A stretch of 64,000 nt of DNA from an uncultured Candidatus Saccharibacteria bacterium (GTDB lineage: Bacteria; Patescibacteriota; Minisyncoccia; Phycocordibacterales; UBA1006): contig CAZVLM010000001.1 in assembly GCA_964628065.1 (NCBI GenBank), positions 9,357 through 73,356 on the forward strand, read 5' to 3'. The translations under genes and the position numbers were made by a program. Within the stretch, counting starts at the first letter, position 1; each line of letters begins with the position of its first letter. The notes under the pieces are model-generated. The model worked only from the letters and a program-made list of their open reading frames with translations. It was not told where the DNA came from and ran no database searches. Positions 24,575-46,869 of this stretch are shown here, piece after piece.

Positions 24575-24690
24575 AGTTCTCAGTTCTGGCGACACCTACT
24601 CTCCCTCTTACGAAGTACCATTGGTGTAGCGGCGCTTAACGACTCTGTTCGAAATGGGAAGAGGTGTGACCACCGTACTAAATCACCAGA
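24575..24690 (-). rRNA. rrf: 5S ribosomal RNA
   Basis: The reverse complement reads ..GGTGGTCACACCTCTTCCCATTTCGAACAGAGTCGTTAAGCGCCGCTACACCAATGGTACTTCGTAAGAGGGAGAGTAGGTGTCGCCAGAAC, with helix I closing as GTTCTGGTG / CGCCAGAAC. Confidence 0.75.
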
Positions 24691-24799: not shown

Positions 24800-28205
<3,406 letters not shown>

Positions 28206-30327: not shown

Positions 30328-30486
30328 ACGTTGTATTGAAATAACTTAAAAATAGTAAATGACAGCTGGCCCCGGACAGGTCGGCATATCAGGGTTTATT
30401 ATATCATTTTTAAAAATCTTGGACTACGCCATTTGTAAAAGGATCGACTTTGTGGCATAGTCAAAAAGAACTTAAATTTAAAAACT

Positions 30487-30990
30487 ATGAGCAAATTAGA
30501 CTATAAGTATCTTCTCATGAAGATGAAGCGCCACAACATTGAAGAAGCGCTCGGAAAGACCCTCATCCTCCAGGATAATCCCATCCTCAAAGCCAATCGG
30601 GAGGCAGGAGGCATTCTGATTGAACTTATTATTATAATAGCCTTTATAAGTCAGAATGACGATGAGCCGGATTTTTTCGAAATGTTAAAAGAACTTTCTT
30701 CGTCAGAAAAAGTTTCCAACTTGCTTGAATGCTGGAAATACAATTTCCCAGATCTTCAAATTCGGTTTTCCGCCTCACCGGTCCTTTCAGGGCCTGATAA
30801 GGATGATGCACTCGCTCTTTTAGAGATTGTGAGGACTCAATCTGAACACACTGAAATTAAGAACTTGTTAGAACTTATTCAACAAGAAACCCTTCTTGCA
30901 CCTTACGCAATATCCGTTGTTCTGGATGAACCGATTAAGGCTGACGCCGGAATCTTTCCTACGGAAAAAACCTATTCGTTTCTTGAATAA
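30487..30990 (+). CDS. Hypothetical protein
   Basis: 167-aa ORF followed by the terminator at 31004..31031. Confidence 0.35.
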   Translation: MSKLDYKYLLMKMKRHNIEEALGKTLILQDNPILKANREAGGILIELIIIIAFISQNDDEPDFFEMLKELSSSEKVSNLLECWKYNFPDLQIRFSASPVLSGPDKDDALALLEIVRTQSEHTEIKNLLELIQQETLLAPYAISVVLDEPIKADAGIFPTEKTYSFLE

Positions 30991-31003
30991 AAAATTTAAA
31001 ACA

Positions 31004-31031
31004 GAATTCCCTGCTGTGCGGCAGGGAATTT
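31004..31031. terminator. Bidirectional terminator (GAATTCCCTGC-TGTGCG-GCAGGGAATT)
   Basis: 10-bp stem between convergent genes. Confidence 0.6.
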
Positions 31032-31038
31032 TAATTAA

Positions 31039-32574
31039 TTAAGGCAAAACTGTTATCTGCTTAACAAGTGAATTGTTCGCTTCATTCGATTCATTTACTA
31101 AATTGTATCCCCCAGTTGTGCCCATTGCATAGTCATCCACTCGAACTGTAAGTCCAAAAGTTCCACTTACTCCTAATATGTTTGGCGTCGTAGACTGATA
31201 CACGTCCACATCATACGTCTGCCCCACCGCCAGCGTAACAGGATTCATTAATTGCTGTGCGCCATAACTTACGCCATTTTTAAGGAAACTAATCTGAGTT
31301 CCGCGCGGAAGGGTTGCCGTCGCACTGCCAATATTTTTAATCGTTGCATGCACCTTAAAGTTGGTATTAGGTGTTGGTTCTTTCGTCGGGTCGATGATAA
31401 CTCGTACATGCGGAGATGAGGGGGTCCATGTGAAGTCTTCTACGATTAGGTCGGGTTTTGTGATCGAAACAGGGAAATTTGTACATGGTGCAAACTTTTG
31501 AATGCGAGTATTTCCTCCGTCCCCCACATAAACATTTCCATAACTATCTATGGCAACACTAAACGCTCCCCTGAACTGCCCGTCTGCTGAACCATACGTT
31601 CCAAATTGAGTAAGGTAAATACCATTTCCTGTAAATTTTTGGATACGTGAATTATTCCTATCCACAACATACACATTGCCGACTTGGTCTGTCGCAATAC
31701 CGAATGGTTGATTAAATTGACCATTGCCACTACCGTATGTTCCCCATTTACTTATGTATGCTCCGGAAGATGTAAATTTTTGGATACGGTTATTTCCCGT
31801 ACCAACACTATCTGCAACAAAAATATTTCCGAAGATGTCTGCGGCAATACCGAGATTTCCTTGAAACTGACCGTTTCCAGTACCGTACGTTCCCCACTTA
31901 CTTAAATAAACTCCATTTGAATTAAATTTCTGAATTCTGTAATTACCTGTATCTGATACATAAATATTTCCCATGGAATCAATTGCAATTCCCCAGGGAT
32001 TTTTAAACTGTCCATCTGCAGAACCATAAGTTCCCCACTGGGTTATATAGGTACCAGTAGAAGAAAACTTCTGAATACGATGATTAGCACTATCTACAAC
32101 GAAGATATTTCCAAAAGAGTCTACTGCAATACCTTCCGGCATGGCAAATTGACCATTTCCGGAACCACTTCCTCCAAACTGACTAAGATATGTACCTCCT
32201 GAGGAAAACTTTTGAATAAACCCCGTGGTACTGTTATCTGATACATAAACATTATTTGTTTGGTCAACAAAAACCGCACCAACGGAACCAGGGAACAATC
32301 CATTTCCAGAAAACCCAACTCCTCCCCACTTTGTAACAAACTTATACCCACTCGCCGGACATGATAACGGAGCAGTAACCACCGGCCCAGTTGGAATACC
32401 TGCCGGTGTCGGCGTGTTTTGAATAGAGGCAATCTGATTATCCGACAATTTTGTAACTGCGACAGCCCGGTATAACGAAGCGGCATTACTCCCCTGGTAA
32501 TTTTTAACTACTAAAAACGCTCCAGCCGTGATGACTGCGAGCGCAAAAACTGCGAGTGTTAGTTTCTTTTTCAT
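31039..32574 (-). CDS. Secreted NHL-repeat beta-propeller protein with C-terminal CARDB-like domain (paralog 1)
   Basis: Signal peptide, repeated ..GNIYV.D..N.RIQKF.. NHL motifs, and a C-terminal PDLIVEDFTWTPS...NTNFKVHATIKNIGSATA (CARDB-like). Confidence 0.65.
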   Translation of the reverse strand: MKKKLTLAVFALAVITAGAFLVVKNYQGSNAASLYRAVAVTKLSDNQIASIQNTPTPAGIPTGPVVTAPLSCPASGYKFVTKWGGVGFSGNGLFPGSVGAVFVDQTNNVYVSDNSTTGFIQKFSSGGTYLSQFGGSGSGNGQFAMPEGIAVDSFGNIFVVDSANHRIQKFSSTGTYITQWGTYGSADGQFKNPWGIAIDSMGNIYVSDTGNYRIQKFNSNGVYLSKWGTYGTGNGQFQGNLGIAADIFGNIFVADSVGTGNNRIQKFTSSGAYISKWGTYGSGNGQFNQPFGIATDQVGNVYVVDRNNSRIQKFTGNGIYLTQFGTYGSADGQFRGAFSVAIDSYGNVYVGDGGNTRIQKFAPCTNFPVSITKPDLIVEDFTWTPSSPHVRVIIDPTKEPTPNTNFKVHATIKNIGSATATLPRGTQISFLKNGVSYGAQQLMNPVTLAVGQTYDVDVYQSTTPNILGVSGTFGLTVRVDDYAMGTTGGYNLVNESNEANNSLVKQITVLP

Positions 32575-32609
32575 ACCTCTATCATATCCCTAAGCTTTTA
32601 TAGAGTCAA

Positions 32610-34181
32610 TTAAGGCAAAACTGTTATCTGCTTAACAAGTGAATTGTTCGCTTCATTCGATTCATTTACTAAATTGTATCCCCCAGTTGTACCCATTGCA
32701 TAGTCATCAACTCGAACTGTAAGTCCAAACGTGCCAGCTGTTCCGAGAATGTTCGGAGTCGTAGACTGGTACACATCTACATCAAACGTTTGACCCACCG
32801 GAAGCGTAACAGGATTCATCAATTGCTGCGCACCGTGACTTACTCCATTTTTAAGGAAACTTATCTGAGTTCCACGCGGAAGCGTTGCAGTCGCACTACC
32901 GATATTTTTAATCGTTGCATGCACCTTAAAGTTAGTGTTCGGGGTCGGTTCTTTTGTTGGATCAGTAATAATTCGTACGTGAGGAGATGAGGGAGTCCAT
33001 GTAAAGTCTTCTACAATTAGGTCAGGTTTAGTAATACTTAATGGAACTGAAGGGATTCGAACGGGAGTACACGGAGAAAATTTTTCAATTCGGTTATTAG
33101 CTGAATCTGAAACATATATATCTCCTTGGGGACTAACAGCAATACCTACAGGAGCTCTAAACTGACCATTACCATAACCACTACTTCCCAACTGAGCTAT
33201 ATAAGCTCCATTCTGATCAAATTTCTGGACGCGCTCTTGATAATTATCCACCACATAAATATTTCCATAAGAATCAACATCGATACCTACTGGATCCATA
33301 AATTTTCCATTTCCAACATATCCCCTGCTACCGATCTGTGAAAGATATTGCCCTGTTGAGTTAAACTTTTTAACCCCATAACCAGTAAGGCTCGTGATAT
33401 AAATGTTTCCCGCTGTATCAAGAAATACATCGTTGTCTACACCTGTTGGATTTGAAAATTGCCCGCTTGCAGAACTTCCCGTCCCAAACTGGCTTAAATA
33501 TCCTCCATTCGACTTAAACTTTTGAACACGATTATTATACCTATCAACAACATAAATATTTCCCGCTGTATCGATCGCAATACCTCCGGGGCCATTAAAT
33601 TGTCCATTATTAGCGCCAAGCGTTCCCCATTGGGTAATATAATTTCCCTGAGAATCAAATTTTTCAACTCTATTGTTACCAGTATCAACTACATAAACAT
33701 TTCCTGTCATATCAATTGCAATGCCTCCTAAAGAGTCACCTAATGCGAAATTTGGAACCTGAAATTGTCCATTCGCTGATCCTTGCGTTCCCCACTGTAA
33801 TATATATTGACCACTTGAATTAAACTTCTGAATACGATTGTTACGAGCATCATGAACATAAACATCCCCCGATGAATTAACGGCTATATATCCGGGGATA
33901 GCGAACTGGCTATTGCCTGAACCATAGACGCCCCACTGAGAAACATAATTATACCCGCTCGCCGGACATGATAACGGAGCAGTAACCACCGGCCCAGTTG
34001 GAATACCTGCCGGTGTCGGCGTGTTTTGAATAGAGGCAATCTGATTATCCGACAATTTTGTAACTGCGACAGCCCGGTATAACGAAGCGGCATTACTCCC
34101 CTGGTAATTTTTAACTACTAAAAACGCTCCAGCCGTGACGACTGCGATCGCAAAAACTGCGAGTGTTAGTTTCTTTTTCAT
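32610..34181 (-). CDS. Secreted NHL-repeat beta-propeller protein with C-terminal CARDB-like domain (paralog 2)
   Basis: Same architecture as paralog 1. The first ~78 aa and last ~140 aa are near-identical to it at the nucleotide level, while the central repeats are divergent. Confidence 0.65.
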   Translation of the reverse strand: MKKKLTLAVFAIAVVTAGAFLVVKNYQGSNAASLYRAVAVTKLSDNQIASIQNTPTPAGIPTGPVVTAPLSCPASGYNYVSQWGVYGSGNSQFAIPGYIAVNSSGDVYVHDARNNRIQKFNSSGQYILQWGTQGSANGQFQVPNFALGDSLGGIAIDMTGNVYVVDTGNNRVEKFDSQGNYITQWGTLGANNGQFNGPGGIAIDTAGNIYVVDRYNNRVQKFKSNGGYLSQFGTGSSASGQFSNPTGVDNDVFLDTAGNIYITSLTGYGVKKFNSTGQYLSQIGSRGYVGNGKFMDPVGIDVDSYGNIYVVDNYQERVQKFDQNGAYIAQLGSSGYGNGQFRAPVGIAVSPQGDIYVSDSANNRIEKFSPCTPVRIPSVPLSITKPDLIVEDFTWTPSSPHVRIITDPTKEPTPNTNFKVHATIKNIGSATATLPRGTQISFLKNGVSHGAQQLMNPVTLPVGQTFDVDVYQSTTPNILGTAGTFGLTVRVDDYAMGTTGGYNLVNESNEANNSLVKQITVLP

Positions 34182-34190
34182 ACACTTATC

Positions 34191-34820
34191 TTACTTCCTT
34201 AATTCAGGATGGTCAATCTTATTGATCAACTTCTCATGAGGATAATCAAGCATATCCCGAAGCAATTTGTCATACATGTTAAGTCGGTAAATGAATTCTT
34301 CTGTTTCGAAAACGGCGTATCGCAACTCCTTTCCGATTTCTGATTCAAGTTCCTTAATCTTTCGATCAATCGCTTTTCGTTCCAGTCGATCTCCGACAAT
34401 CATAAGATCCATTGTTCGGTCGTTGTCATGCAAGAAAATTCCAGAAACTACGAAGAGTCCAATCTTGCCAATCTTATTAAATCGAGGAAGCAAATCAGGA
34501 ATATGAGTTCCTGCAGCATCAACCAGAAGACTTCGAAGGGGTTCGCTGAGCGTAAACTCTTTTACAGCGACATATCCTGGATACTTCTTTCTCTTTGTGC
34601 TTTTTCCTTTAACTATTACTTTTGTGACAACCTTTGGCTTGATCATACCCACTTTTGCAAGCTCCAAAAGATCGCTTTTAATAAGTTTAGGCTGGACTCG
34701 TAATCGCTCCGCCAAGTCCTCAATAGATATTGCAATATCTTGATTCAATAAGAAAAACTTCATCAGTTTCACCCGAGTCATCGATCCAAACAATCTTCCT
34801 AAAATATCAAGCTGTTTCAT
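34191..34820 (-). CDS. wHTH protein with C-terminal minimal nucleotidyltransferase-like region (hypothetical regulator)
   Basis: N-terminal ..ISIEDLAERLRVQPKLIKSDLLELAKVGMI.. wHTH. C-terminal ..GLFVVSGIFLHDNDRTMDLMIVGD.. resembles the GS..D.D of minimal NTases. Confidence 0.35.
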   Translation of the reverse strand: MKQLDILGRLFGSMTRVKLMKFFLLNQDIAISIEDLAERLRVQPKLIKSDLLELAKVGMIKPKVVTKVIVKGKSTKRKKYPGYVAVKEFTLSEPLRSLLVDAAGTHIPDLLPRFNKIGKIGLFVVSGIFLHDNDRTMDLMIVGDRLERKAIDRKIKELESEIGKELRYAVFETEEFIYRLNMYDKLLRDMLDYPHEKLINKIDHPELRK

Positions 34821-34852
34821 ATGCGGGCATTATACAGGAATTTATAGAAAGC

Positions 34853-34878
34853 AAAAAAGCTCCCAAGGGAGCTTTTTT
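34853..34878. terminator. Bidirectional terminator (AAAAAAGCTCCC-AAG-GGAGCTTTTTT)
   Basis: Perfect hairpin with A/T flanks. Confidence 0.6.
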
Positions 34879-34904
34879 GTGGTGAAATGTGAATTATTTC
34901 AATT

Positions 34905-35555
34905 CTACCTTTCCTTATAAGGATTAGTAATGATTCCAATATTATCTATTAATTCATCGGAAAACTGACTTAATTTTATAACACCTTTTCTCAATTCCCT
35001 CTTTGAGGTTGCAACCTTGCCCAATTCGTAAGATTTCCCCTTAACTGGAGTAACCACAATAACTTCTTTCTGCAATTTTACAGTAACAATTCGAACCGCT
35101 TCAACCAGATCAGAGTCGGCAGATAACACGATAGCAACATCATAACAATCTTCATGCGCATCATGCACAATATGAACCGCAAGGCTTACATCTGTTCCCT
35201 TCTCTTCGGTTTTAATAACGGGAACCTGCTCATGGGTTTGTGCATGAGTCATTTGAATGATGTGCGACGAGAAATATCCTTCAATGATCTCAAGATTTTC
35301 AATAGTTTTAAGCGCTCGCCAATATATCTGCTGATTAATAGGTCGATCTTCCTTTCCAGTGTCGTGGATTCGAATTTTTATCTGAGCCGTAAAAAACTTA
35401 ATCATGACAATTTCATATTCCGGAAACATCAAAGCCGTCAGCTTGCTGTAATCAAGCCATTTGTAAGGAGTTCCCTTGAGTCTTCCGTAGAAAATATTAA
35501 AGCTGTCGATGTATATGAACGCTCTTTTCATGCAAAAAAACGATAACACATCCAA
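34905..35555 (-). CDS. NYN-domain (LabA-like) ribonuclease. Likely start is the ATG at 35531.
   Basis: AFIYIDSFNIFYG...KGTDVSLAVHIVHDAHEDCYDVAIVLSADSDLVEAV matches the NYN/LabA pattern. Confidence 0.55.
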   Translation of the reverse strand: MDVLSFFCMKRAFIYIDSFNIFYGRLKGTPYKWLDYSKLTALMFPEYEIVMIKFFTAQIKIRIHDTGKEDRPINQQIYWRALKTIENLEIIEGYFSSHIIQMTHAQTHEQVPVIKTEEKGTDVSLAVHIVHDAHEDCYDVAIVLSADSDLVEAVRIVTVKLQKEVIVVTPVKGKSYELGKVATSKRELRKGVIKLSQFSDELIDNIGIITNPYKER

Positions 35556-35681
35556 ATAAAGTTTTTATCAATTTAAAAGTTTTATTCAGCAGAAAAGCCC
35601 CCGAGAGAGCTTTTCGCGTCCCACCACCGAAGCAATGGGAGGGTTAAGATAAGTATAATTTATCTTGTTTTGGATGTCAAA

Positions 35682-36074
35682 TTATTTCAATTCTACCTTT
35701 CCTCCTGCGTCTTCGATCTGCTTCTTAAGAGCTTCAGCATCTTCCTTCTTCATTCCCTCTTTCAAGGTTGCTGGAAGGTTGTCTACCAAGTCCTTAGCTT
35801 CTTTCAATCCAAGCCCGAGAGCCTCCTTCGCAACTTTCATCATTGCAATTTTAGCACCTCCGTCAGAGACCAATACTACGGTGTAGTCAGTCTTTTCTTC
35901 AGCTGCCGCTGCTGCAGGACCTGCAACCGCTACTGCTGCTGCAGAAACGCCGAACTTCACTTCAAATAATTTTACCAACTCGTTCAAGTCAAGAACTGAC
36001 ATTTCTTCGATTGCCTTAACAATTGAAGCGAACTTTGCTGGAACTTCAACATTAACTTTGTTTTCTTCAGACAT
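35682..36074 (-). CDS. rplL: 50S ribosomal protein L7/L12
   Basis: [49 protein letters not shown]...KEAKDLV..GGKVELK. The ORF track start at 36116 is an upstream extension. Confidence 0.9.
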
Positions 36075-36813: not shown

Positions 36814-37410
36814 TTACTGAATTTTAAGGGCTGAAATACGGGCACGCCTGATGTAGGAAGTCGTGCCGGTGGGCCATGAGCCCCACATCAGCGAATACGT
36901 TGTCGTAGTGGTCGGACTAATTTGTTGCATATCACTCCATGATCCATAGGTGCCAGTATTTGAATACGCGATACTGTAGGCTATTTCTATTGCTCCCTCA
37001 TTAAGTTGGACCCTCGCACCTGCATCAATAGAACTATTGAATACATCGCAGTTTGAAAAAAGCAGATAGGTACCTGGTGGAAGCGTAAGCGACACACGAG
37101 TCTGCATGACGCTTGTAGACGTACTCATTTGAGCATTACTTGAAATGTAATAAGTAATCGGATTAGAACTTATTCCTTGAAATACTCTTTTAAGCGTGTC
37201 TACATCTACCGCACAAAGCATTCCTGCGGAATCTACCACTGCAACCCTCTTAACGCTTGCCAATTTTTTTACAGAATCCACTTTAAAGGTTCCTGCAACA
37301 TGAAGTGTAGCCTGAGGATTGTTCGTTCCGATCCCCACCCCGCCTCTTTGTGAAAATCCGTTCATACTTATTAATAGTAATAAGCAACATGAGATTACGT
37401 TCTGTTTCAT
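36814..37410 (-). CDS. Secreted protein sharing a C-terminal domain with the collagen-like protein
   Basis: Signal peptide. The C-terminal ...[13 protein letters not shown]...DAGARVQ...EIAYSIAYSNTGTYGSW...[27 protein letters not shown] is alignable with the C-terminus of 37434..38402. Confidence 0.45.
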   Translation of the reverse strand: MKQNVISCCLLLLISMNGFSQRGGVGIGTNNPQATLHVAGTFKVDSVKKLASVKRVAVVDSAGMLCAVDVDTLKRVFQGISSNPITYYISSNAQMSTSTSVMQTRVSLTLPPGTYLLFSNCDVFNSSIDAGARVQLNEGAIEIAYSIAYSNTGTYGSWSDMQQISPTTTTTYSLMWGSWPTGTTSYIRRARISALKIQ

Positions 37411-37433
37411 TCTTACATTATTTAAGTAAAAAA

Positions 37434-38402
37434 TTATTGAGTCTTAACAGCCACAAGTCGCGCTCTCCGAATATATGAAGTTCCATTTGGCCACGAACCC
37501 CAAAGTAAGTCATAAGTACTTACGGTAGTAACTTGAACTTTTTTTAATGCATACCACGAACCAAACGTGCTGGTATTTGAATACACTATTCCATAAGCAA
37601 TCTCAGAAGTATCCCTCATGATTTGTGCGCGCACTCCTGCGTCAACCGTTGGATTGTATGCTTCCAAATAACCTTGGAGTAAGTAATTGCCTGGTGGAAG
37701 AGTTAACGATACGCGCACTTGAAGAGTTTGCGTAGTAATACTAGAGATTGGCTCCATTTCCGCGTAATAAACTTGAGGAATAGCATCAGCCCCTGTCGGA
37801 CCAGTAACGCCAATTGCGCCACTCAATCCAGTATTGCCTGGCAATCCTTGAGGGCCGGTTGGGCCTTGGATTCCTGCAATACCGGTCGGTCCTGTCGGAC
37901 CGACCGAGCCAGCTAATCCGTCCGTTCCGGACGGACCCGTTGCGCCAGTAATACCAGTTGCACCAGTTGGGCCTTGGGCACCCATTGGACCGATTGCACC
38001 CGTAGGTCCCACCATGCCATTACCTGAAAAAAGTGCATACGGAACACTCAGAAGTTCTGTGGTTCCCATATCCATAAAATTCCCTCCCCCATTTTGATCA
38101 AGAAATACCTGTAAATATTTAAATCCTGATCCCCAATCAACCGTTGCAAGATTGCCACTACTACCAATTTGGGTCGTCACCAATCCGAACTGGTTAGTGA
38201 TACTAGAAACAATTTCACTGTAGACAATCGTTCCTGTTGATGATGCTTCATGAATAACAAATTTCAGTGTGATCACGCGATTTGCAATAATAACACCTTG
38301 TGCATCCCGCACTACTGCTTGATAATTCATTTTTTGAGGAATCTGAGATTTTAGAAGAATATGCAACATTCCCAATAAGGCGACAAATGTAATTTTTTTC
38401 AT
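37434..38402 (-). CDS. Collagen-like triple-helix-repeat protein with globular N-terminal and C-terminal domains
   Basis: A ~75-aa run of uninterrupted G-X-Y triplets ([74 protein letters not shown]) and a signal peptide. Confidence 0.6.
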
Positions 38403-38535
38403 ATTTTAGTTTTTTTAAATGAACAATTTCTCGACCAGTAAACCAAACACCCTCTCAAGAAATTACTAAGAAAAAGTAAAGCCTAGATAAAACCAATCCG
38501 CTGGAAAAAGTGTCAAAAATCCGTATACTGGAACT

Positions 38536-39831
38536 ATGAAAAACTACCGAAAACAAGCCCTCTTTTTGGGAGACGTTCTCTCATTTATTGCAGGATTCTT
38601 CCTGTTTGCCCTCATTGTTTACGGAACTGCTCGTTTTACAGAAGGCGTTTCTCTCCATGCCCTTCCATTGGCAATCCTTGCCATTATATGGATTGCGGTT
38701 TTCTTCATCTTTAACTTTTACGATATTCAGAAATCGAAACCAAACTTAATTTTCTTGAGAAATTTTTTCATTGCCGCACTCATCATGCTTGGTATTGGAT
38801 TTATTTTCTTTTATATCAACCCTGTCACAAAGATCAGTCCTAAAACAAACCTTCTGATTTTCGAAGGTGTCTCACTCGCTCTTATTCTAGGATGGCGCCG
38901 ATTATTCTATTCTGCAACATCAAATATTTTTAGAAGCCGTTTTGCGATTGTGTGCTCCGATGAACGACATCAGACATTGGTCGATGAAGTTTCAAAAAAC
39001 CCTCACTTGGGATTCATATGCGTCGGTACCTACTTAACCCTAGCTGATTTTCATGCGAGTAATGTTGCTGTCGACCTGCTTATTATTCATAAGACAGCTA
39101 TGGAGGAAACAGAACTTTTGGAAAAAACACTGGCGAGCAACATTGATGTAATCGACCTTGCGGAAGCTTATGAAAACATTCTATATAAAATTCCCGTGAA
39201 CTTTATTAACAGTAATTGGGTTATTCACTCTATTAAAAAACAAGGAGATTTTTTCTACTATGCCATTTCACGAGTCATTTCAATCGTGTTTGCGATTGCT
39301 GTATTAATAGTCACTTCTCCTATTTGTCTCGCTATCGTGATTGCTATGAAAATCGAAGACGGTGGACCTATTATTTTCAAAAATGACCGCGTGGGACTTA
39401 ACGGAAAAGTATTTTATCTGTATAAGTTCAGATCCATGATTGTGAACGCTGAAAAAAATGGCGCTGAATGGGCAAAGGTAAACGATTCTCGAATTACAAA
39501 AGTTGGAGCGATTACCCGAAAACTCCATGTTGATGAAATCCCTCAAATGATTAATTTACTTAAAGGAGATTTAACACTGGTAGGACCACGACCTGAACGT
39601 CCAGACTTTGTGGCCGATCTCGAAAAGCAGATCCCCTATTACTTCATGCGACATACGATCAAACCTGGCTTTACCGGATGGGCACAAATTAAATTCCGAT
39701 ATGCTCGAACCATCATGGACTCTCAGGAAAAATTTGAGTACGATTTGTATTACATTAAAAATAGAAACTTTTTCTTGGATGTTGGTATTATTTTGAAGAC
39801 CGCCCAGATCGTGTTCACCCACCTTGAATAA
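38536..39831 (+). CDS. Polyprenyl-phosphate sugar phosphotransferase (bacterial sugar transferase / WbaP-like)
   Basis: N-terminal TM helices. The C-terminal catalytic domain reads ..PIIFKNDRVGLNGKVFYLYKFRSM....DEIPQMINLLKGDLTLVGPRPE. Confidence 0.8.
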   Translation: MKNYRKQALFLGDVLSFIAGFFLFALIVYGTARFTEGVSLHALPLAILAIIWIAVFFIFNFYDIQKSKPNLIFLRNFFIAALIMLGIGFIFFYINPVTKISPKTNLLIFEGVSLALILGWRRLFYSATSNIFRSRFAIVCSDERHQTLVDEVSKNPHLGFICVGTYLTLADFHASNVAVDLLIIHKTAMEETELLEKTLASNIDVIDLAEAYENILYKIPVNFINSNWVIHSIKKQGDFFYYAISRVISIVFAIAVLIVTSPICLAIVIAMKIEDGGPIIFKNDRVGLNGKVFYLYKFRSMIVNAEKNGAEWAKVNDSRITKVGAITRKLHVDEIPQMINLLKGDLTLVGPRPERPDFVADLEKQIPYYFMRHTIKPGFTGWAQIKFRYARTIMDSQEKFEYDLYYIKNRNFFLDVGIILKTAQIVFTHLE

Positions 39832-41092
39832 TATGATTGCGTACCTGAAGAAAAGATTTCTAGAACGAAGCGCAACTGAACATACGGTAATAAAAAATAC
39901 CGGCTGGCTTTTTGTTGGTGAAGTTGGAAGTCGTATTGCACGAGGCGCGCTTGCAATCATTGCGGCACGAATGCTGGGTGTGTCAGGACTAGGAGCATGG
40001 TCATACGCTGTTGCTCTTTCTGGGTTCTTTACCTTCTTTGAAGATGCTGGCATCGGCATGTTCGTAACACGTGAGTTTGCAAAAGGAAGCGATTCGAAAG
40101 AGTCTATTTTCAGTACTGCGATTGTTCTAAAATTAGGACTACTTGCCCTTGCAATTGCTCTATTCCTCGGTATTGGACCACTCATCAGTGATATTCCTGA
40201 GGCCACAGCAATTCTTCCTATTGTTGCATTGGTATTTGTTTTCGATTCGCTACGAGGATTCTTTTTCTCTATTAGTAGAGCCGAGCAGAAAATGGACACT
40301 GAGTCGAAAGTTCAAATTGTAACGAGCTTGCTGGTAGTGGGACTCGGCGTACTGTTCATGCTCATTTCTCCCACCCCGCTGTCTCTCGCGCTTGGGTATG
40401 CGGCAGGTGGTGGCATTGGCTGTCTGCTTATTTTCCTATCAGTCAAAAAATACATTCCTAACTTGGTTACTTTTTTTTCAAAACAATTGTTTGTACATAT
40501 TTTTAAATCGGCATGGCCTTTTACCATTCTTGCGATTTCAAACATTGTTATCTTTAGTACGGACACCATCCTCCTTGGACATTTTGCGAGCGTGCATGAA
40601 GTGGGTCTGTATGGTGCCGCGAGTCGACTGGTTCAAATTTTTTATATCCTTCCTGCACTCTTTGCAACAGTTACGTTTCCAGTATTCGTTAAAAAATCTG
40701 TCGGTGAAACCGGGATTTGGTTTGCACTTAGAAAGTCGCTCCTCCTTATGACGGCGGTCATGATTCCATTGGTTCTGGTAATGATGTTTGGATCGCATCT
40801 TATTATTAAAATTTTGTTCGGCGCTGAATATGCTCCTGCGGGAATATTATTAGCGGTCCTCTCCCTTTCCTATATTCCTGTATTCATCGGAACCTTATTG
40901 AACAATGTGGTATTTGCGGAGAATAAGCAAAAACAATTTGTGGTCGCGAATATTATTGGAATGGTTATTAACTTAATTCTTAACTTGATCCTTATTCCTA
41001 AGTATCACGCTCTTGGGGCATGTGTATCAACAGTTACCGCCCTTTCGGTAATTACGGCTATTACGGCAATTAAGATGAGATTTTCTAAGTAA
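39824..41092 (+). CDS. Wzx-like oligosaccharide flippase (MOP superfamily)
   Basis: 422 aa with ~12-14 TM helices. Overlaps the preceding gene by 8 nt. Confidence 0.65.
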   Translation: MNNMIAYLKKRFLERSATEHTVIKNTGWLFVGEVGSRIARGALAIIAARMLGVSGLGAWSYAVALSGFFTFFEDAGIGMFVTREFAKGSDSKESIFSTAIVLKLGLLALAIALFLGIGPLISDIPEATAILPIVALVFVFDSLRGFFFSISRAEQKMDTESKVQIVTSLLVVGLGVLFMLISPTPLSLALGYAAGGGIGCLLIFLSVKKYIPNLVTFFSKQLFVHIFKSAWPFTILAISNIVIFSTDTILLGHFASVHEVGLYGAASRLVQIFYILPALFATVTFPVFVKKSVGETGIWFALRKSLLLMTAVMIPLVLVMMFGSHLIIKILFGAEYAPAGILLAVLSLSYIPVFIGTLLNNVVFAENKQKQFVVANIIGMVINLILNLILIPKYHALGACVSTVTALSVITAITAIKMRFSK

Positions 41093-41104
41093 GTATAAAT
41101 TGAC

Positions 41105-41134
41105 AAATACACTTAAATGGTGTATTTTGTTTTT
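41105..41134 (+). terminator. Terminator hairpin (AAATACAC-TTAAATG-GTGTATTT, then TGTTTTT)
   Basis: Immediately downstream of the flippase gene. Confidence 0.5.
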
Positions 41135-41152
41135 GAAACTAAAAACTGAATA

Positions 41153-41761
41153 ATGAGATACAAAACATTACTAACACTCATCTACGGCGAGACGCGAGAC
41201 CGTAAAAGGTCGGCATCGTGGGTTGTATTTTCAACCAACAAGCCGAATTATATCGTGCTCTACCTTGCAGCAGGGAAACTTCCCTTCTCAAGAATACTCC
41301 CACTTAAGGAATTGATGCTTAACGATATTCGAAAGATGCTCGCAGCGAAAGGTTATGTTGAATCTGTGAAGCGGGATCAGGTTTACACCTTCAATAAAGG
41401 CACTCACGAAATACACATCATCCTGCTCGGCGGAAACGCGTGGGGAACGATCGAAGAAACGTACTTGCTTATCAAGCATCTTTTGCTGGATTACCGAGAA
41501 ACCATCCATGTTTTCTCCTCACGCAGCCACTTGCCGAGAATAAAGAGAATATGGGCGCTGTTCGCACCAGAATGGAATGTGGAATGCATTTCAGCAGACG
41601 AAGATATGAGCGACAACCTGAAGTCATTTGAATCGAAAAAAGATACTCAGACGACCGTGTTCTATTGGGTGTATCGTCATTTCGGCGAAACAGGCTTCCA
41701 TATCATTTCGTACTTGAAAAACTTAATCGTAAACCGGATATTGAACCTTCAGGGCGAATGA
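41153..41761 (+). CDS. Hypothetical protein (possibly DUF218/YdcF-like)
   Basis: 202-aa ORF in the glycan locus. The family call is tentative. Confidence 0.3.
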   Translation: MRYKTLLTLIYGETRDRKRSASWVVFSTNKPNYIVLYLAAGKLPFSRILPLKELMLNDIRKMLAAKGYVESVKRDQVYTFNKGTHEIHIILLGGNAWGTIEETYLLIKHLLLDYRETIHVFSSRSHLPRIKRIWALFAPEWNVECISADEDMSDNLKSFESKKDTQTTVFYWVYRHFGETGFHIISYLKNLIVNRILNLQGE

Positions 41762-41781
41762 CCAACTTACAACAAAACATT

Positions 41782-41808
41782 AAGCCGCCTTAGAAAAAGG
41801 CGGCTTTC
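41782..41808. terminator. Bidirectional terminator (AAGCCGCCTT-AGAAA-AAGGCGGCTT)
   Basis: 10-bp stem between convergent genes. Confidence 0.6.
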
Positions 41809-41832
41809 TTATGAAAAAATTATTTAACAAGA

Positions 41833-43041
41833 TTATTTAACAAGTCTGTGGAAAATATTCCTAAACTCTTGCTGTGACTGTTCCGATGAATAATTTTTCT
41901 CTGCAAAGACTCGAGCATTGTTCCCTATCGTCTTCCGGAAAGACTCATCATCAAACACCTTGTTTATGTCGGCCACCCATTTTTTTGTATCCTGCTCCGG
42001 CGCAATCAAAATATTCTTTTCATGCTCCAAGCCTGGAATGCCTGCGGTAGCTGCAGGTGTTGTAATAACTGGAATTCCCATCGCCATTGCTTCCAAAATT
42101 TTTGATGGAGTTCCTCCGGCAAAGCGGATTGGCGCAATCATCAAATTACACCTCTTTGCAACATCCCACACTTCCGGAACAAATCCAGTAAAAACAATTT
42201 GCGAATCTTCAGGATAATTTTGAAGCGATCCTTTTTTTCCAAGCACGTAGAGCATTACCCCGGGAATATTCTTTTTAAGATCTGCCCAAATATCATTCAG
42301 GAAGAACAGGAGCGCGTCTCGATTCGGCTCATATCCCAATCGCCCCATAAAGAAAATATTTTTCTCAGTCGAATCAAGGAGTGACTGATTCCCTATCTTT
42401 GGGCCATGATGAATACATGCAAATTCTATTTCATGTTTATGAGTGTAAAACTTAGAATCGAGGAGGTAGTGGCGGTCGTGTTCTGATACCACATTGAACT
42501 GGTAAAAAGACTCCAGAACTTTAGCTTCATACTTTGTAACACGGTACCCCTCGAAAAGATAAAAGAGTTTTTTAGGAAGCATCAACTGCTTGAGTGATGT
42601 CTTATAATTAAGAGAAATCGCATCGTTAAAATCTATAAGCATTTTCTTTTTAAGATCTGGATCGTACTTGATAAAGTATTCAGTCATGCGAATTTCATGC
42701 ACATAAAAAGCGTCATAGTTTCCAACATTCGTGTCTAACCATTTTTGCGCGTTTCTGAAATGAAACGATTCTGCTTGGAATGGAAGTCCTGACCAAAGCG
42801 CAGGAATAGCACTCATGCCAAACTCTATGAGAGAATACTTAAACAAATGCACCTTTCCAAAATTCTTCTCTAAGTATTCAACCTGATCTGCTGTAACCGC
42901 ATCAATCGTTACAATAAAAAACTCAAGTGAAAAATCCTTCGCAAGTCCTTCGATGACATTGTCCAATATTTTATATCGCGTACCATCAATCGCGGGATAC
43001 GGCATTCGAAATAATGAAATAAGAAGCTTAGGCTTTTGCAT
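41833..43041 (-). CDS. Glycosyltransferase family 1 (GT4-like)
   Basis: The C-terminal ..EAMAMGIPVITTPAATAGIPGLEHEKNILIAPE.. matches the GT-B E-x7-E region. Confidence 0.7.
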   Translation of the reverse strand: MQKPKLLISLFRMPYPAIDGTRYKILDNVIEGLAKDFSLEFFIVTIDAVTADQVEYLEKNFGKVHLFKYSLIEFGMSAIPALWSGLPFQAESFHFRNAQKWLDTNVGNYDAFYVHEIRMTEYFIKYDPDLKKKMLIDFNDAISLNYKTSLKQLMLPKKLFYLFEGYRVTKYEAKVLESFYQFNVVSEHDRHYLLDSKFYTHKHEIEFACIHHGPKIGNQSLLDSTEKNIFFMGRLGYEPNRDALLFFLNDIWADLKKNIPGVMLYVLGKKGSLQNYPEDSQIVFTGFVPEVWDVAKRCNLMIAPIRFAGGTPSKILEAMAMGIPVITTPAATAGIPGLEHEKNILIAPEQDTKKWVADINKVFDDESFRKTIGNNARVFAEKNYSSEQSQQEFRNIFHRLVK

Positions 43042-43924
43042 ACAATTTACGATGATTATTTTGGCCTATGCGTCGCTCAATAAAATAGGTATAGCGACCA
43101 ATAATGCAACGAATGAGAAACCAATAAATATTTTTTACACCGAATTTCCTTCTGAAAATATCTTTATTTTTAATAAGAAGTCGTGCAGTATTTTTCCATA
43201 CCTGCCATTCATACACGTGTCGCTTTTTACGAGAACCTCCCGATTGATTCACGGCTGTATTTTTCAAATGAAATGATAACGTATCTGGAATAAGCCATAG
43301 CTTAAATCCCGCATCCCATGCGCGTAAAAAGAAATCTGTTTCCTCACGGAATGCATTACCACCAAACAACGGGTCGTATTGAACCGACTTAAAGACCTCT
43401 CGCTTCATAAGCATATTCGAATGAAGGCGACTTACCTCTTCTGGTTTTTCTACAACACGTTCAAAATACCCTTCGAAAGGAATATGAGTAAAAATAGGGT
43501 CACGATCGAAATCAGCAAGCTTTTTTGCTGCTTCCATGGTCTGATCTGCATACATATTTACTCTTCGTCCAGCGATAATATCAGCACCATGCTCTTTCAT
43601 TTTTTCAAGCAATATCTTGAAATGATTTTCAGGAAGCAGTACATCATCTTCTCCCATAAAAATATACTCTGCGGATGACAGACTGATACCAACATTTCGA
43701 ATATTAGGAAGCGTCGACTTTTCAGTCATACGGTGGTAAATAATTTGTCCTGGGTGAAGTCGAGATAGCTCATTCACATACTCTGTGGTGTTATCCGTAC
43801 TACAATCGTCAACAAAAATGATCTTCCCTACACCCTCTTGGGAGAAATAAGAATCCATTACCTTGGTTAAGGCTTTGGCTCGGTTATACGTGGGCATTAC
43901 CACATCAATAAGGCCTTGTTTCAT
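43028..43924 (-). CDS. Glycosyltransferase family 2
   Basis: VVMPTYNRAKAL...IIFVDDCSTDNT..FMGEDDVLLP gives the GT-A DxD signature. Confidence 0.7.
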   Translation of the reverse strand: MKQGLIDVVMPTYNRAKALTKVMDSYFSQEGVGKIIFVDDCSTDNTTEYVNELSRLHPGQIIYHRMTEKSTLPNIRNVGISLSSAEYIFMGEDDVLLPENHFKILLEKMKEHGADIIAGRRVNMYADQTMEAAKKLADFDRDPIFTHIPFEGYFERVVEKPEEVSRLHSNMLMKREVFKSVQYDPLFGGNAFREETDFFLRAWDAGFKLWLIPDTLSFHLKNTAVNQSGGSRKKRHVYEWQVWKNTARLLIKNKDIFRRKFGVKNIYWFLIRCIIGRYTYFIERRIGQNNHRKLYAKA

Positions 43925-43964
43925 AGGCTTATTATATCAGAAAATATGATAAGCTGTACTTACT

Positions 43965-44897
43965 ATGAAATCAGCCATCTGCCCCATTTGCCAATCAAAA
44001 ACAACGCCCCTCCTTACAAAAAGCAGCCATCCGTTGACGCAGTGTCCCTCATGCGACCTTATTATGATGGATCCGCAGCCAACTCCAGAGGAACTTAATC
44101 GCTTTTATTCCCCGGAGGCGGGCTACCACGCCGAATATTCGGATGCGTTTATCGCAAAACAGCGCGCGCAGTTCAAGCTTCGCATTAATGCAACCGAAAA
44201 ACTTATTCCTGGGTCATTACGACCTGTAAGAGTTCTTGATATTGGTGCTGCGAACGGACTATTCCTTAATGTGGCAAAAGAGCATAATTGGAACACTGAA
44301 GGTATCGAAATGAATCGATCAAACGCCGACCATTGCCGAAAAAATGGCCATATTATGACAACAGGAAGCTTTGATGATTATACCGCTACACCTGATTCTT
44401 TTTCAGTTGTTCACATGGGAGATGTTATTGAGCACATGCTTGATCCACGTGCTGCTGTAAAAAAATCTCATACTATTCTTGCGCAAAAGGGTCTCCTTGT
44501 TATGGCAACACCAGATGCCGATTCACTTTTTGCAAAACTAAGTTTGCCGATCGCTCGACTTCTTCACATCAGCTGGCCACATGCCCTCCCTCCTGCGCAC
44601 ACATTTCAATTCTCAGAAGATAATCTTACGCTCATGCTGAAACAGGAAGGTTTCGAACCTGTTCATCGCCACTCGCTTCCAATTGGGTTCATGGAAGAAA
44701 TGCGAGAAACAGAATATTTTGAAACGATTTATACTTATATTAAAAAACGCCGAGGCACTCTCGGAGAATTTATTAAAGCCTCTATCATGTTCTGTGTTTC
44801 TGCTGTTATTTATTTCATCCCTTGGGCCATCGGAGAAATCACCTTCCCTCTTACTAGAAAAGGTGCCCATGTTACCGTCTGGTATCAGAAGAAGTAA
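43965..44897 (+). CDS. Class I SAM-dependent methyltransferase with N-terminal Cys4 zinc-ribbon
   Basis: CPICQSK...CPSCDL, then motif I VLDIGAANGLF. Confidence 0.65.
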   Translation: MKSAICPICQSKTTPLLTKSSHPLTQCPSCDLIMMDPQPTPEELNRFYSPEAGYHAEYSDAFIAKQRAQFKLRINATEKLIPGSLRPVRVLDIGAANGLFLNVAKEHNWNTEGIEMNRSNADHCRKNGHIMTTGSFDDYTATPDSFSVVHMGDVIEHMLDPRAAVKKSHTILAQKGLLVMATPDADSLFAKLSLPIARLLHISWPHALPPAHTFQFSEDNLTLMLKQEGFEPVHRHSLPIGFMEEMRETEYFETIYTYIKKRRGTLGEFIKASIMFCVSAVIYFIPWAIGEITFPLTRKGAHVTVWYQKK

Positions 44898-45888
44898 TCT
44901 CATTAAGTAGTGCACTGTACTTTTGATTGAACTGGTCGATGCTGTGATATTCAATAATGTAATTGCGTAGCTCTTGCGAGAGCTGCGCTTTTTCTTGTTC
45001 ACTTTTATGCACCAGCTTTTTAAACGCTTCAAAGTATGCGTCCCCTGTTTGGATATGTACAATACAATCAGCAAATAATCCCTTTTCCTTGAGCTCCGGC
45101 ACGAGCCCTACAGGACTCGCCAGGAACGGCAATCCGCACGCCATAGCATCCATGAGCGCGTACGAACATCCTTCATGAAGACTCGGCAATAAAAACACTT
45201 GAGATTCTTTATAAAGCACCGAAAGTTCTTCCTGTGATTTTCCCTGTGGAACCACCAAATCCCATCCTATACTTCTCAAATAAATGTCCATCTGCTCGAG
45301 TATTTCTTTTCCTTTTGCAATTTCAAAACGACCCACAAAGAGTGCTTGGTTTTTCTTTGTTTTGTCTGAGGGGGCGAAAAGATTTGTATCTACGGCATTA
45401 AGGATGACTCCTACATCTTTTCTTCCGTAAAACATACTCACACTTTTTGCGGTCTCTTTTGATACAGCAATACATTTTATCGCGCGTCGTGCGGCCAATC
45501 CTTCAAAAGATCCCCAAATATAGCGCTTCATAACATACTTAAAAATATTCCTGCTTCTATCAATACGCACCGCAGCGCGCGCAAAGGTGCCATGCTGTAC
45601 GTTTATGGTTGGCTTTCCCGCAATATTCCAACCAAGCATTCCATTAGTAACACAAACATCGAAGCCTTGTTGGAGCGCTTTCCTTCCAAGGAAATACCCT
45701 AACGCCGGCTGCTCAAAGCCTGCATATTTTTTAAGTCTTACTATTAAAGCTTGTAACGGACTCAGATCTTCTTTTGAAAGAATGGATACCTTGTGTCCAT
45801 TCTTAATAAAACAATCTTGCAAGTAAAAACTGAAGCGCTCTACGCCCCCAGACTGAGACTTTGAAGATGAGAGAATGATAATATTCAT
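44872..45888 (-). CDS. Glycosyltransferase family 1
   Basis: ..FVGRFEIAKGKEIL...EGCSYALMDAMACGLPFLASPVG.. matches GT-B. Confidence 0.7.
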   Translation of the reverse strand: MNIIILSSSKSQSGGVERFSFYLQDCFIKNGHKVSILSKEDLSPLQALIVRLKKYAGFEQPALGYFLGRKALQQGFDVCVTNGMLGWNIAGKPTINVQHGTFARAAVRIDRSRNIFKYVMKRYIWGSFEGLAARRAIKCIAVSKETAKSVSMFYGRKDVGVILNAVDTNLFAPSDKTKKNQALFVGRFEIAKGKEILEQMDIYLRSIGWDLVVPQGKSQEELSVLYKESQVFLLPSLHEGCSYALMDAMACGLPFLASPVGLVPELKEKGLFADCIVHIQTGDAYFEAFKKLVHKSEQEKAQLSQELRNYIIEYHSIDQFNQKYSALLNEITSSDTRR

Positions 45889-46853
45889 TACTTGTACTCA
45901 GGAATTTTCCCGAGTGTTCCCGTTAAAATACGAAATACGTTTTTAGCATGCGCCATTGCAATAGCTCTGTAAGGATATTTTTTGAAGAGTGACATAGGAA
46001 ATGCGATAAGCACTTTAATTGACGAAGTAACTACATAAATAATCTTTGCGGCAAGCACCGTTGGCCAGCCGTAATAATTCTTGAAGTAGAACAATGTTCC
46101 GATGTATGAAGCCCGAAGCACTGCATCGCGATCGCGCACTGACGACTTTCCACCCGCATGCACCACTGATGTTGGCGCGTAAAGAATGATCTTTTTCCCA
46201 TTGTTTTTCATTTTCTTCGCAAGGTCAATCATGTCTGCATACGACATGAAATACTGCGGATGAATGCCTCCCACCTTAAGGAATTCTGCCTTTCGTGCCA
46301 TAAAGCACGCACCTCCAATCCAACCCACTTCTGTTGGCTCTGTAATCTTTAGTCGTGCCTGCTTTCGTTTTTTAATCCACGGAAAGATTTCTAGATACTT
46401 TGACTCAAGCGTCTTTCCTAATAGCTCATTCCAAGGCGTAAGATCTTGTCCATACGTTTCTTGCGCTACGCCATATTCATCGGTAATTTTTGGGCCAATA
46501 ATTCCAATCTCTTGATGCTGTTCAAAATATTCAAGCATGCTCAGCATTCCGGGCACCGAAAGTGTCGTGTCGGGATTGATCGAAAGTGCAATATCTGCCT
46601 TTGCAAGGTCAAAGCCCTGAGTAATGCCCACAGCAGAGCCCACATTTTTATCATTAAAATAAAGTCGATATCGGGGATCGTTTTCACAGTGCTCTTTTAA
46701 GTAAGCAATCGTTCCATCTTTTGAAGCATTATCAATGATAATTACCTCTACTTGATCCTTATCAAATTTTTCAACCGCCGCAAGGCATTCCCCTATTTCC
46801 TTCTCAGAAAAGTACGTAACAATGATAATAGACAACCGTTTCGATTCGTTCAT
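45888..46853 (-). CDS. Glycosyltransferase family 2
   Basis: LSIIIVTYFSEKEIGECL...IIDNASKDGT matches GT-A. Confidence 0.7.
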   Translation of the reverse strand: MNESKRLSIIIVTYFSEKEIGECLAAVEKFDKDQVEVIIIDNASKDGTIAYLKEHCENDPRYRLYFNDKNVGSAVGITQGFDLAKADIALSINPDTTLSVPGMLSMLEYFEQHQEIGIIGPKITDEYGVAQETYGQDLTPWNELLGKTLESKYLEIFPWIKKRKQARLKITEPTEVGWIGGACFMARKAEFLKVGGIHPQYFMSYADMIDLAKKMKNNGKKIILYAPTSVVHAGGKSSVRDRDAVLRASYIGTLFYFKNYYGWPTVLAAKIIYVVTSSIKVLIAFPMSLFKKYPYRAIAMAHAKNVFRILTGTLGKIPEYK

Positions 46854-46869
46854 ATATAAGCCGATTTTA

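Follow-up and report, generated by a model that had tools for sequence, protein, structure and literature searches.

In the pilE/pilS system of Neisseria and the vlsE system of Borrelia, a single expression site is combined with many promoterless partial cassettes, and switching takes place at high frequency. The propeller of PknD is extracytoplasmic and is thought to bind a ligand. The Bab paralogues of Helicobacter pylori (babA/babB/babC) have homology regions at the N-terminus and, with more than 90% identity, at the C-terminus, on either side of a variable, type-specific middle; Bab chimeras carry gene conversions in the first 60–240 bp and in the 3′ region, and the assignment of paralogue to locus varies between strains (PMC4552749). 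PilX2, an RCC1 beta-propeller minor pilin of the Saccharibacteria strain TM7x, is needed for host binding (PMC11623550). Here, we compare these systems with a tandem pair of NHL-propeller/CARDB genes, located in a 64,000-nucleotide (nt) stretch (hereafter, the window) of an uncultured Candidatus Saccharibacteria genome (GCA_964628065.1, contig CAZVLM010000001.1, positions 9,357 to 73,356 of the forward strand).

The two genes form a mosaic. Their heads and extreme 3′ tails are nearly identical in DNA, their propeller cores are saturated at synonymous sites, and the similarity of head and tail is younger than the split from the nearest sampled relative. Furthermore, the phylogenies of the modules are incongruent between genomes, and the array itself turns over.

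Module-wise divergence of the two genes

The genes, g1 and g2 (W_g1 and W_g2), are both complete and form a head-to-tail tandem with a 35-nt spacer between them. The features of the locus are as follows:

32610–34181, minus strand: g1, the upstream paralogue with core type A; intact open reading frame (ORF) of 523 amino acids (aa)
31039–32574, minus strand: g2, the downstream paralogue with core type B; intact ORF of 511 aa
33949–34183, minus strand: 5′ shared block of g1 (2 nt upstream, start codon, helix and linker through SCPASGY; codons 1–77)
32342–32576, minus strand: 5′ shared block of g2, copy of the g1 block
33036–33950, minus strand: propeller core of g1, six NHL blades with xKF anchors, flanked by Cys72 and Cys371
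31465–32343, minus strand: propeller core of g2, six NHL blades with xKF anchors, flanked by Cys72 and Cys364
32613–33035, minus strand: CARDB-like C-terminal module of g1, 141 aa (Pfam CARDB)
31042–31464, minus strand: CARDB-like C-terminal module of g2, 141 aa (Pfam CARDB and family alignment)
32608–32690, minus strand: identical 83-nt tail of g1 (last 78 coding nt, TAA and a further 2 nt, TT)
31037–31119, minus strand: identical 83-nt tail of g2, with 0 mismatches to that of g1
32575–32609, minus strand: 35-nt spacer with the promoter-like pair TTGACT-17-TATGAT (promoter scan, 10 of 12 matches)
31005–31030, minus strand: intrinsic-terminator-like hairpin closing the array (AATTCCCTGC-cgcaca-GCAGGGAATT, then a T-run)

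The original prediction, made from the sequence alone, had described tandem NHL/CARDB paralogues with near-identical termini and divergent cores. In line with this, both ORFs are present as listed and both exceed the Pfam thresholds. NHL (PF01436) was matched with E values of 5e-36 (121.4 bits) in g1 and 1.7e-38 (129.2 bits) in g2 against a cut-off of 20, and CARDB (PF07705) with 27.7 and 31.7 bits, respectively, against a gathering cut-off of 22.7.

The sharing of the first ~235 nt was confirmed, since the 5′ blocks differ at 3 of 235 nt and their longest identical run spans 181 nt. Equally, the central blades are as strongly diverged as had been described: the cores have 49% aa identity, and their synonymous sites are saturated (synonymous divergence, dS, ~2.3–2.4; nonsynonymous divergence, dN, 0.45–0.46). 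The 3′ end was less well described. The last ~420 nt, said to be essentially identical, are in fact 87.6% identical over 428 nt, with 53 mismatches that are nearly all synonymous (42 synonymous differences in codons 389–500, the CARDB body), and the CARDB module is 95% identical in aa. The supposed identical 80-nt downstream flank, taken for 3′ untranslated region, turned out to be the 83-nt tail listed above, which is almost entirely coding; beyond it, g1 runs into the spacer and g2 into the terminator hairpin, and these true flanks are unrelated. Uniform divergence along the gene was looked for by direct comparison, and divergence was found not to be uniform, with both ends conserved.

Codon-aligned Nei–Gojobori estimates gave the following values for g1 versus g2:

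Head, codons 1–77: dS 0.017, dN 0.012
Core: dS ~2.4 (saturated), dN 0.46
CARDB body, codons 389–500: dS 0.86, dN 0.04, dN/dS ~0.05
Last 29 codons: dS 0.05, dN 0

Synonymous differences occupy 1 of 60 sites in the head and 42 of 82 in the CARDB body (Fisher p = 7e-12); the tail, with 1 of 20, likewise differs from the CARDB body (Fisher p = 9e-5). This module-wise contrast in dS and dN, together with the Fisher tests, points to three superimposed processes, namely very recent homogenisation of head and extreme tail, strong purifying selection on the CARDB body and ancient divergence of the cores.

In composition, the cores resemble each other (GC 0.40 in g2 and 0.39 in g1; GC at third codon positions, GC3, 0.27 and 0.26; window mean 0.376). 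The GC3 of the heads, 0.42–0.43, lies above that of the cores, and such a higher GC3 of the exchanged parts would be compatible with biased conversion. Within g2 (31658–32092), adjacent blades are 63–70% identical in DNA in units of 144 nt, which is more internal repetition than is seen in g1 and may reflect blade duplication or within-gene exchange.

Relatives, module phylogenies and array turnover

Full-length relatives of the two proteins amount to only a handful among 5.8 billion proteins. The array was found in the same slot in three other metagenomic genomes, in the order rplJ, rplL, 209-aa gene, array, MscS-like gene. The relatives referred to below are:

L001 (JGI sample 3300045311), close relative: rplJ, rplL, 209-aa gene, L1_a, L1_b, MscS-like gene
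L002 (GCA_964451545.1), distant relative: rplJ, rplL, 195-aa gene, L2_a, L2_b, L2_c, MscS-like gene
L003: lone family gene on a short contig

The DNA flanking the array is 86–90.6% identical between L001 and the window, and the single-copy flanking genes, which provide the calibration, have dS values of 0.15–0.67 and dN values of 0.012–0.02.

The core of g1 has 91% aa identity to that of L1_b and 74% to that of L2_a, and 44–51% to all other cores, which are 44–52% identical among themselves. The CARDB modules follow the genome instead: g1 and g2 are 95% identical versus 86% for g1 and L1_b, and L2_a and L2_b are 81% identical versus 64% for L2_a and g1. Across genomes, cores group by type; in heads and tails, the grouping is by genome, and the tracts that show it are sharply clustered. 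Purifying selection maintains the type-A core, which is shared by three genomes: dS was 0.45 and dN 0.05 (dN/dS 0.11) between the orthologous cores of g1 and L1_b. The C-terminal modules of the same two genes reach a dS of 1.27 versus 0.45 in the core (p = 2.6e-5); as identity falls at the propeller/CARDB boundary, we conclude that the C-terminal module was replaced in one lineage.

A site-pattern analysis of g1, g2, L1_a and L1_b, with the informative sites taken in order, located these tracts. In head codons 1–31, g1, g2 and L1_a are nearly alike and L1_b is diverged, while in linker codons 39–60 it is g1, g2 and L1_b that agree and L1_a that is very different; 10 by-genome sites lie in codons 32–65. 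From codon 80 on, the sites group by type (g1 with L1_b, g2 with L1_a), and they do so again in codons 492–505 of the C-terminal alignment. Grouping by genome returns in codons 522–533, which read TGGY in g1 and g2 and GNVF in both L001 genes. The switching of by-genome and by-type runs along the gene was significant (runs test, P < 5e-5).

The head of the window genes is itself a chimera, L1_a-like in its signal-peptide part and L1_b-like in its linker part. Since the identical chimera is present in g1 and g2, a block of ~231 nt or more was copied as one unit between the two genes, at a time when the chimera already existed. Furthermore, the synonymous sites of the head vary between genomes (dS 0.33 for g1 versus L1_b), so the identity of g1 and g2 is ascribed to recent copying and not to constraint at the nucleotide level. 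Recent gene conversion of the head and extreme tail, later than the split from L001, is supported by dS values of 0.017 and ~0, as compared with 0.15–0.67 in the flanking genes. The earlier interpretation of the mosaic as recent conversion can be kept for these two parts, also in view of the runs test, and has to be given up for the CARDB body (dS ~0.8, dN/dS ~0.05), where the values point mainly to purifying selection, with older exchanges, and not to recent conversion. Low-dS tracts and conflicting module phylogenies, in which the ends follow the genome and the rest follows orthology, are the marks by which concerted evolution is recognised, and both are present here.

The core sets differ between genomes, being A and B in the window, C and A in L001, and A, D and E in L002; type A takes the leading position in the window and L002, and the second position in L001. 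In L2_c, which has core E, CARDB is replaced by an SdrD_B-like domain at the C-terminus. A 2.2-kb window segment carrying g2 and an orphan ORF (30487–30990) is absent from L001, and the first gene of L001, L1_a, is absent from the window. The junction from C-terminal module through spacer to head is collinear and 83% identical between window and L001, although it joins different cores, and a nearly identical spacer is found in L001 between L1_a and L1_b. The best full-length relatives of g2 belong to its own family, with 61–67% overall identity, and its core has no close relative in the searched databases.

The 141-aa version of CARDB is rare. A word-indexed search with the CARDB alignment returned two fragments only, and an exhaustive HMMER search bore out this rarity with 5 cluster representatives at E < 1e-30 among 1.84 billion; outside the family, this version was found only on Kelch propellers, in two Saccharibacteria metagenome-assembled genomes (MAGs). 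Turnover of the array, the SdrD_B replacement and the CARDB–Kelch fusions together argue that modules recombine at several evolutionary depths.

Metagenome scans for further arrays, with CARDB profile patterns and with an exact 50-nt head pattern, found none. Independent assemblies of the L001 strain are 100% (L013) and 99.96% (L011) identical to it over the array, the L011 contig ending 54 nt into the second head. A further contig, L014, matches L002 with ~99.6% identity across rplL and the array and holds no new array variant. Its rplJ region (1186–1790, corresponding to 288–887 of L002) is only ~75% identical, with a sharp break, which could be either a recombination breakpoint or an assembly chimera.

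In two ENA assemblies, codon 226 of L2_b is changed from GGA (Gly) to TGA by a G-to-T substitution (L007:55 and L008:1097, equivalent to L002:4149), whereas the gene is intact in the NCBI MAG (L002). This would be a natural knock-out polymorphism, unless TGA is translated as Gly in that lineage; of the 64 long ORFs of the window, only 4 terminate with TGA. A candidate short CARDB-only protein, P0121, was rejected, since the nonsense single-nucleotide polymorphism splits L2_b and P0121 corresponds to its 3′ half.

With regard to transcription, g1 is preceded by TTGACC-17-TAAGAT and g2 by TTGACT-17-TATGAT, the -10-like hexamer ending 6 nt before the ATG (window 34188–34216 and 32581–32609). A -35/-10-like pair of the same geometry lies upstream of L1_a, L1_b, L2_a, L2_b and L2_c, the distance being 7 nt for L2_b. 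A strong terminator (34852–34879) precedes the 209-aa gene, and the second one (31005–31030) follows g2. These consensus matches suggest that each paralogue is transcribed separately as a leaderless or near-leaderless mRNA. In L002, a 34-nt element composed of a GC-rich palindrome and a -10-like box (ACTTGCACCCCCTTTCAAGGGGGTGTTATA...) occurs at 4975–5008 and 6381–6414, one copy upstream of L2_c and the other downstream, before the MscS-like gene. This element may represent a repeated promoter or operator.

Explanations for the mosaic

We consider it probable, with some room for doubt, that the locus holds a small family of exported NHL-propeller/CARDB proteins in tandem, shaped by the birth and death of genes and by homologous recombination among the paralogues. 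The propeller cores would be ancient, distinct types, each kept by purifying selection, and the set and order of cores are seen to turn over between related genomes. The head, comprising export signal and linker, and the extreme 3′ tail would have been overwritten by non-reciprocal copying between g1 and g2 after the split from the nearest sampled relative, L001. The CARDB body, in turn, would be held nearly constant in protein by strong purifying selection, having been exchanged between paralogues longer ago. In such a family, the conserved ends would act as patches of homology, and recombination breakpoints would accumulate at domain boundaries.

Several points weigh against this explanation. 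The comparison relies on one close (L001) and one distant (L002) relative, which do not resolve the direction and order of the exchanges. The 12 by-genome tail sites fall within a single replacement of 4 codons and probably record one event and not 12. The g2 core is without an ortholog, so that selection was measured on type A and not on the g2 core. All sequences are metagenome assemblies, in which repeats of ~235 nt can be mis-joined, and what is said about function is inferred throughout.

A different history, which we regard as rather unlikely though worth serious attention, would be a recent tandem duplication into two identical genes, after which one copy had its interior, from codon ~78 to codon ~503 (the propeller and most of CARDB), replaced by that of a different paralogue from another strain, the conserved ends providing the crossover sites for homologous recombination. 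It would explain directly why an identical head and tail bracket one continuous diverged segment, and it agrees with the isolation of the g2 core in the searched collections, with the location of g2 and the orphan ORF in the 2.2-kb segment absent from L001 and with the variable array content of the relatives. However, the g2 core shares the unusual composition of the g1 core (GC 0.40/0.39, GC3 0.27/0.26) and bears no sign of foreign origin, an idea that composition does not support. Repeated short conversions are a better fit to the small tracts of differing affinity that L001 shows in the head and the C-terminal module, and the near-identical junction of C-terminal module, spacer and head occurs in L001 as well, between different cores.

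More speculative again, and in our view doubtful, is the proposal that the head and the CARDB/tail are fixed handles and that episymbiotic Saccharibacteria-like strains swap whole propeller modules at this one slot, thereby re-tuning host-surface recognition. Module swapping at deeper levels is supported by CARDB on Kelch propellers, by SdrD_B in place of CARDB and by the different core set of each genome. If it took place, it would be the chromosomal counterpart of the exchange of receptor-binding-protein modules in phages.

The original prediction went further and likened the mosaic to antigenic or host-range variation systems, in which the conserved ends would be handles for frequent within-population exchange of cassettes, as in pilE/pilS or vlsE. 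Conserved ends with variable middles would suit such programmed variation, as would the probable nature of the proteins as exported binding proteins, and the L2_b nonsense polymorphism of two assemblies could be viewed as natural on/off variation. Nevertheless, this system is not indicated by our data, and we deem it improbable. The silent cassettes that it implies were searched for by tblastn and blastn, and no truncated or silent cassette, nor any third copy or fragment of g1 or g2, was found in the 64-kb window; instead of one expression site with promoterless donors, the window holds two complete genes, each with its own promoter-like element and start codon. No invertible segments or local inverted repeats were found, and no repeat tracts in the 5′ region, the tandem-repeat search yielding only a 9-nt unit in 2.2 copies inside the CARDB coding sequence. 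The type-A core is stable across three genomes (dN/dS 0.11), the CARDB body shows no recent exchange (dS 0.8), and the independent assemblies of the L001 strain are 99.96–100% identical over the array.

Other switching mechanisms were considered and rejected. Invertible-promoter and slipped-strand switching were discarded for want of inverted repeats and of a 5′ simple-sequence tract. A diversity-generating retroelement was dismissed likewise: no template repeat, in the form of another copy of either gene's parts, was found in the window, where no search was aimed at a reverse transcriptase, and the differences between the genes extend well beyond a single small region.

Near-identical ends could also arise in assembly, if mixed strains were collapsed or joined into chimeras. 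All data are metagenomic, the L011 contig breaks 54 nt into the second head, as would be expected at a repeat, and L014 passes from 99.6% identity to L002, from rplL onward, to ~75% across rplJ. An assembly error is very improbable all the same, because both ORFs are in frame and intact across every junction, copy-specific differences remain inside the shared head, and independent assemblies of three other samples contain the same arrangement of two genes and spacer. Lastly, an old duplication whose ends are conserved purely by purifying selection, without recombination, describes the behaviour of the CARDB body (dN/dS ~0.05, dS 0.86) but is refuted for the head and tail and has next to no credibility overall, given that selection on protein does not explain synonymous identity in the head (dS 0.017) and tail (~0), that the same sites vary between genomes and that the module trees conflict.

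Neighbourhood, protein architecture and known systems

A 209-aa gene (34191–34820, minus strand) ends 9 nt before g1 and lies directly upstream of the array in the window, L001, L002, L011 and L014. Its N-terminus is of winged-helix type, with a weak Pfam HTH_11 match and a PDB match to an Lrs14-like regulator (E 7e-4), and its C-terminus is nucleotidyltransferase-like, with a partial match to PADLOC PDC-M05A (E 1.2e-10). An assignment to the defence system PDC-M05 was rejected, the match covering the nucleotidyltransferase half only, without a HEPN partner; the gene could regulate the array.

Further upstream, a NYN-domain gene (34905–35555, minus strand; Pfam NYN, E 4.7e-10) matches PADLOC HEC-09 over its full length (E 1e-38). 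It is part of a ~765-nt segment (window 34892–35703) that is absent from L001 and L002 and is flanked by a perfect 24-nt direct repeat, AATTATTTCAATTCTACCTTTCCT (34892–34915 and 35680–35703), which duplicates the 3′ end of rplL. The segment has the appearance of an insertion that brought in a small defence-candidate gene and duplicated its target, and the rplL–NYN arrangement is also present in the Logan contig L012. In published tests, HEC-09 gave no protection (bioRxiv 10.1101/2024.01.29.577857).

On the other side, the orphan ORF (167 aa, 30487–30990, plus strand) converges on g2 within a sequence (30407–31036) that is absent from L001; it had no match in Pfam, NCBIfam or PADLOC and forms a singleton cluster in the protein collection. 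Envelope genes are found near the array at 36814–48951, among them a 198-aa protein with an N-terminal hydrophobic segment, a collagen-repeat protein (37434–38402) and a polysaccharide-synthesis cluster that encodes glycosyltransferases, a sugar transferase and a flippase-like protein; beyond these lie a Wzy_C/TPR protein (48989–51061) and a PG_binding_1 protein (51361–53292). The 23S rRNA gene (24826–28189, minus strand) measures 3364 nt versus a model of 2925 positions and contains a group I intron (25122–25338). It is followed by a 5S rRNA gene (24584–24690), with no 16S gene beside the 23S and no tRNA gene in the window. In the candidate phyla radiation (CPR)/Patescibacteria, rRNA genes are typically unlinked and intron-bearing. 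The intron, the lack of an adjacent 16S gene and the related CARDB module of two Saccharibacteria MAGs are indirect pointers to a Saccharibacteria-like origin.

Both array proteins share the order N-terminal signal or anchor helix, linker rich in Pro, Thr and Ala, six-bladed NHL propeller and C-terminal CARDB. In a PDB sequence search, the matches to solved structures were all NHL propellers (Pizza designs, TRIM71, Brat and PknD 1rwi), with E values down to 2e-54 (TRIM71 5e-53, PknD 6e-22). The blades are marked by six xKF anchors per protein. Either protein contains just two cysteines (C72 and C371 in g1, C72 and C364 in g2), which are family-invariant and bracket the propeller. The AlphaFold2 (AF2) model of g1 comprises a helix (2–28), a low-confidence linker (23–70), a propeller of ~24 strands across residues 77–370 with a predicted local distance difference test (pLDDT) score of ~87–96, and a beta-rich C-terminal domain of lower confidence. 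Modelled alone with AF2, this domain was all-beta (pLDDT 69), and its top PDB fold match was the CARDB of PF1109 (2kl6), a weak one (E 4e-3, TM score 0.45–0.55); the terminal ExNExNN motif typical of CARDB is present in the family alignment. A PADLOC match to the defence protein PD-T4-6 was rejected, since g1 and g2 cover only ~65–80 of 452 profile positions, at the NHL-like C-terminal end (E 5e-11 and 5e-8).

The single hydrophobic segment (aa 5–23, Kyte–Doolittle 2.6) follows a KKK n-region, and a [GSN]-x-A|S motif after the helix (aa 30–33) is kept in all family members. The N-terminal helix would thus be a Sec-type signal peptide of Gram-positive length or else an uncleaved anchor. The architecture is that predicted for an exported binding protein, and export, surface location and ligand binding of both proteins are predicted from it. 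The propeller types probably differ in ligand specificity. CARDB, the most conserved part, may serve all paralogues alike, for example, in attachment to the cell's own envelope or in oligomerisation, and the propellers would then supply the differing specificities. Host attachment by the propellers in an episymbiotic CPR cell, as had been proposed for this locus, is plausible by analogy and reasonable because the RCC1 propeller of PilX2 contributes to host binding in Saccharibacteria TM7x. The literature on NHL or CARDB in combination with Saccharibacteria yielded nothing relevant.

That surface-protein paralogues evolve in concert at their ends is well established for other bacteria and is an ordinary mode of family evolution, and our results mainly correct and bound the earlier claim of recombination and variation. 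The three-tier pattern of converted head and tail, selected CARDB body and ancient, type-specific cores separates what is interchangeable from what is fixed. If the proteins do bind ligands at the surface of an ultrasmall episymbiont, the locus would offer a compact and easily tracked marker of surface-repertoire diversification, and propeller types A to E on one common frame would be concrete constructs for binding tests.

Among known systems, the H. pylori Bab paralogues are the closest behavioural analogue. They share with g1 and g2 the conserved ends, the type-specific middle, the conversion of the ends and the variable assignment of paralogues to positions. In contrast, Bab proteins are Gram-negative outer-membrane Hop proteins and demonstrated adhesins, encoded at dispersed loci with CT-repeat phase variation, whereas g1 and g2 are adjacent, combine an NHL propeller with a CARDB fold, lack a repeat tract and are known from sequence. 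The likeness to Neisseria pilE/pilS and Borrelia vlsE lies in conserved flanks, variable middles and non-reciprocal recombination; the promoterless partial cassettes of those systems have no counterpart for g1 and g2 within the 64-kb window.

At the level of fold, PknD of Mycobacterium tuberculosis (PDB 1rwi), TRIM71 and Brat likewise carry six-bladed NHL propellers, but, unlike PknD and TRIM71, g1 and g2 have no kinase or TRIM module and are stand-alone, predicted exported proteins with CARDB. The CARDB of PF1109 from Pyrococcus furiosus (2kl6/3idu) belongs to the same Pfam family and is the top fold match, the version here being the rare one of 141 aa. PilX2, finally, differs in being a seven-bladed RCC1 propeller on a type IV pilin, whereas g1 and g2 are six-bladed NHL proteins and not pilins; its likeness to them lies in the precedent that it sets for a surface beta-propeller in the host attachment of an episymbiotic Saccharibacterium.

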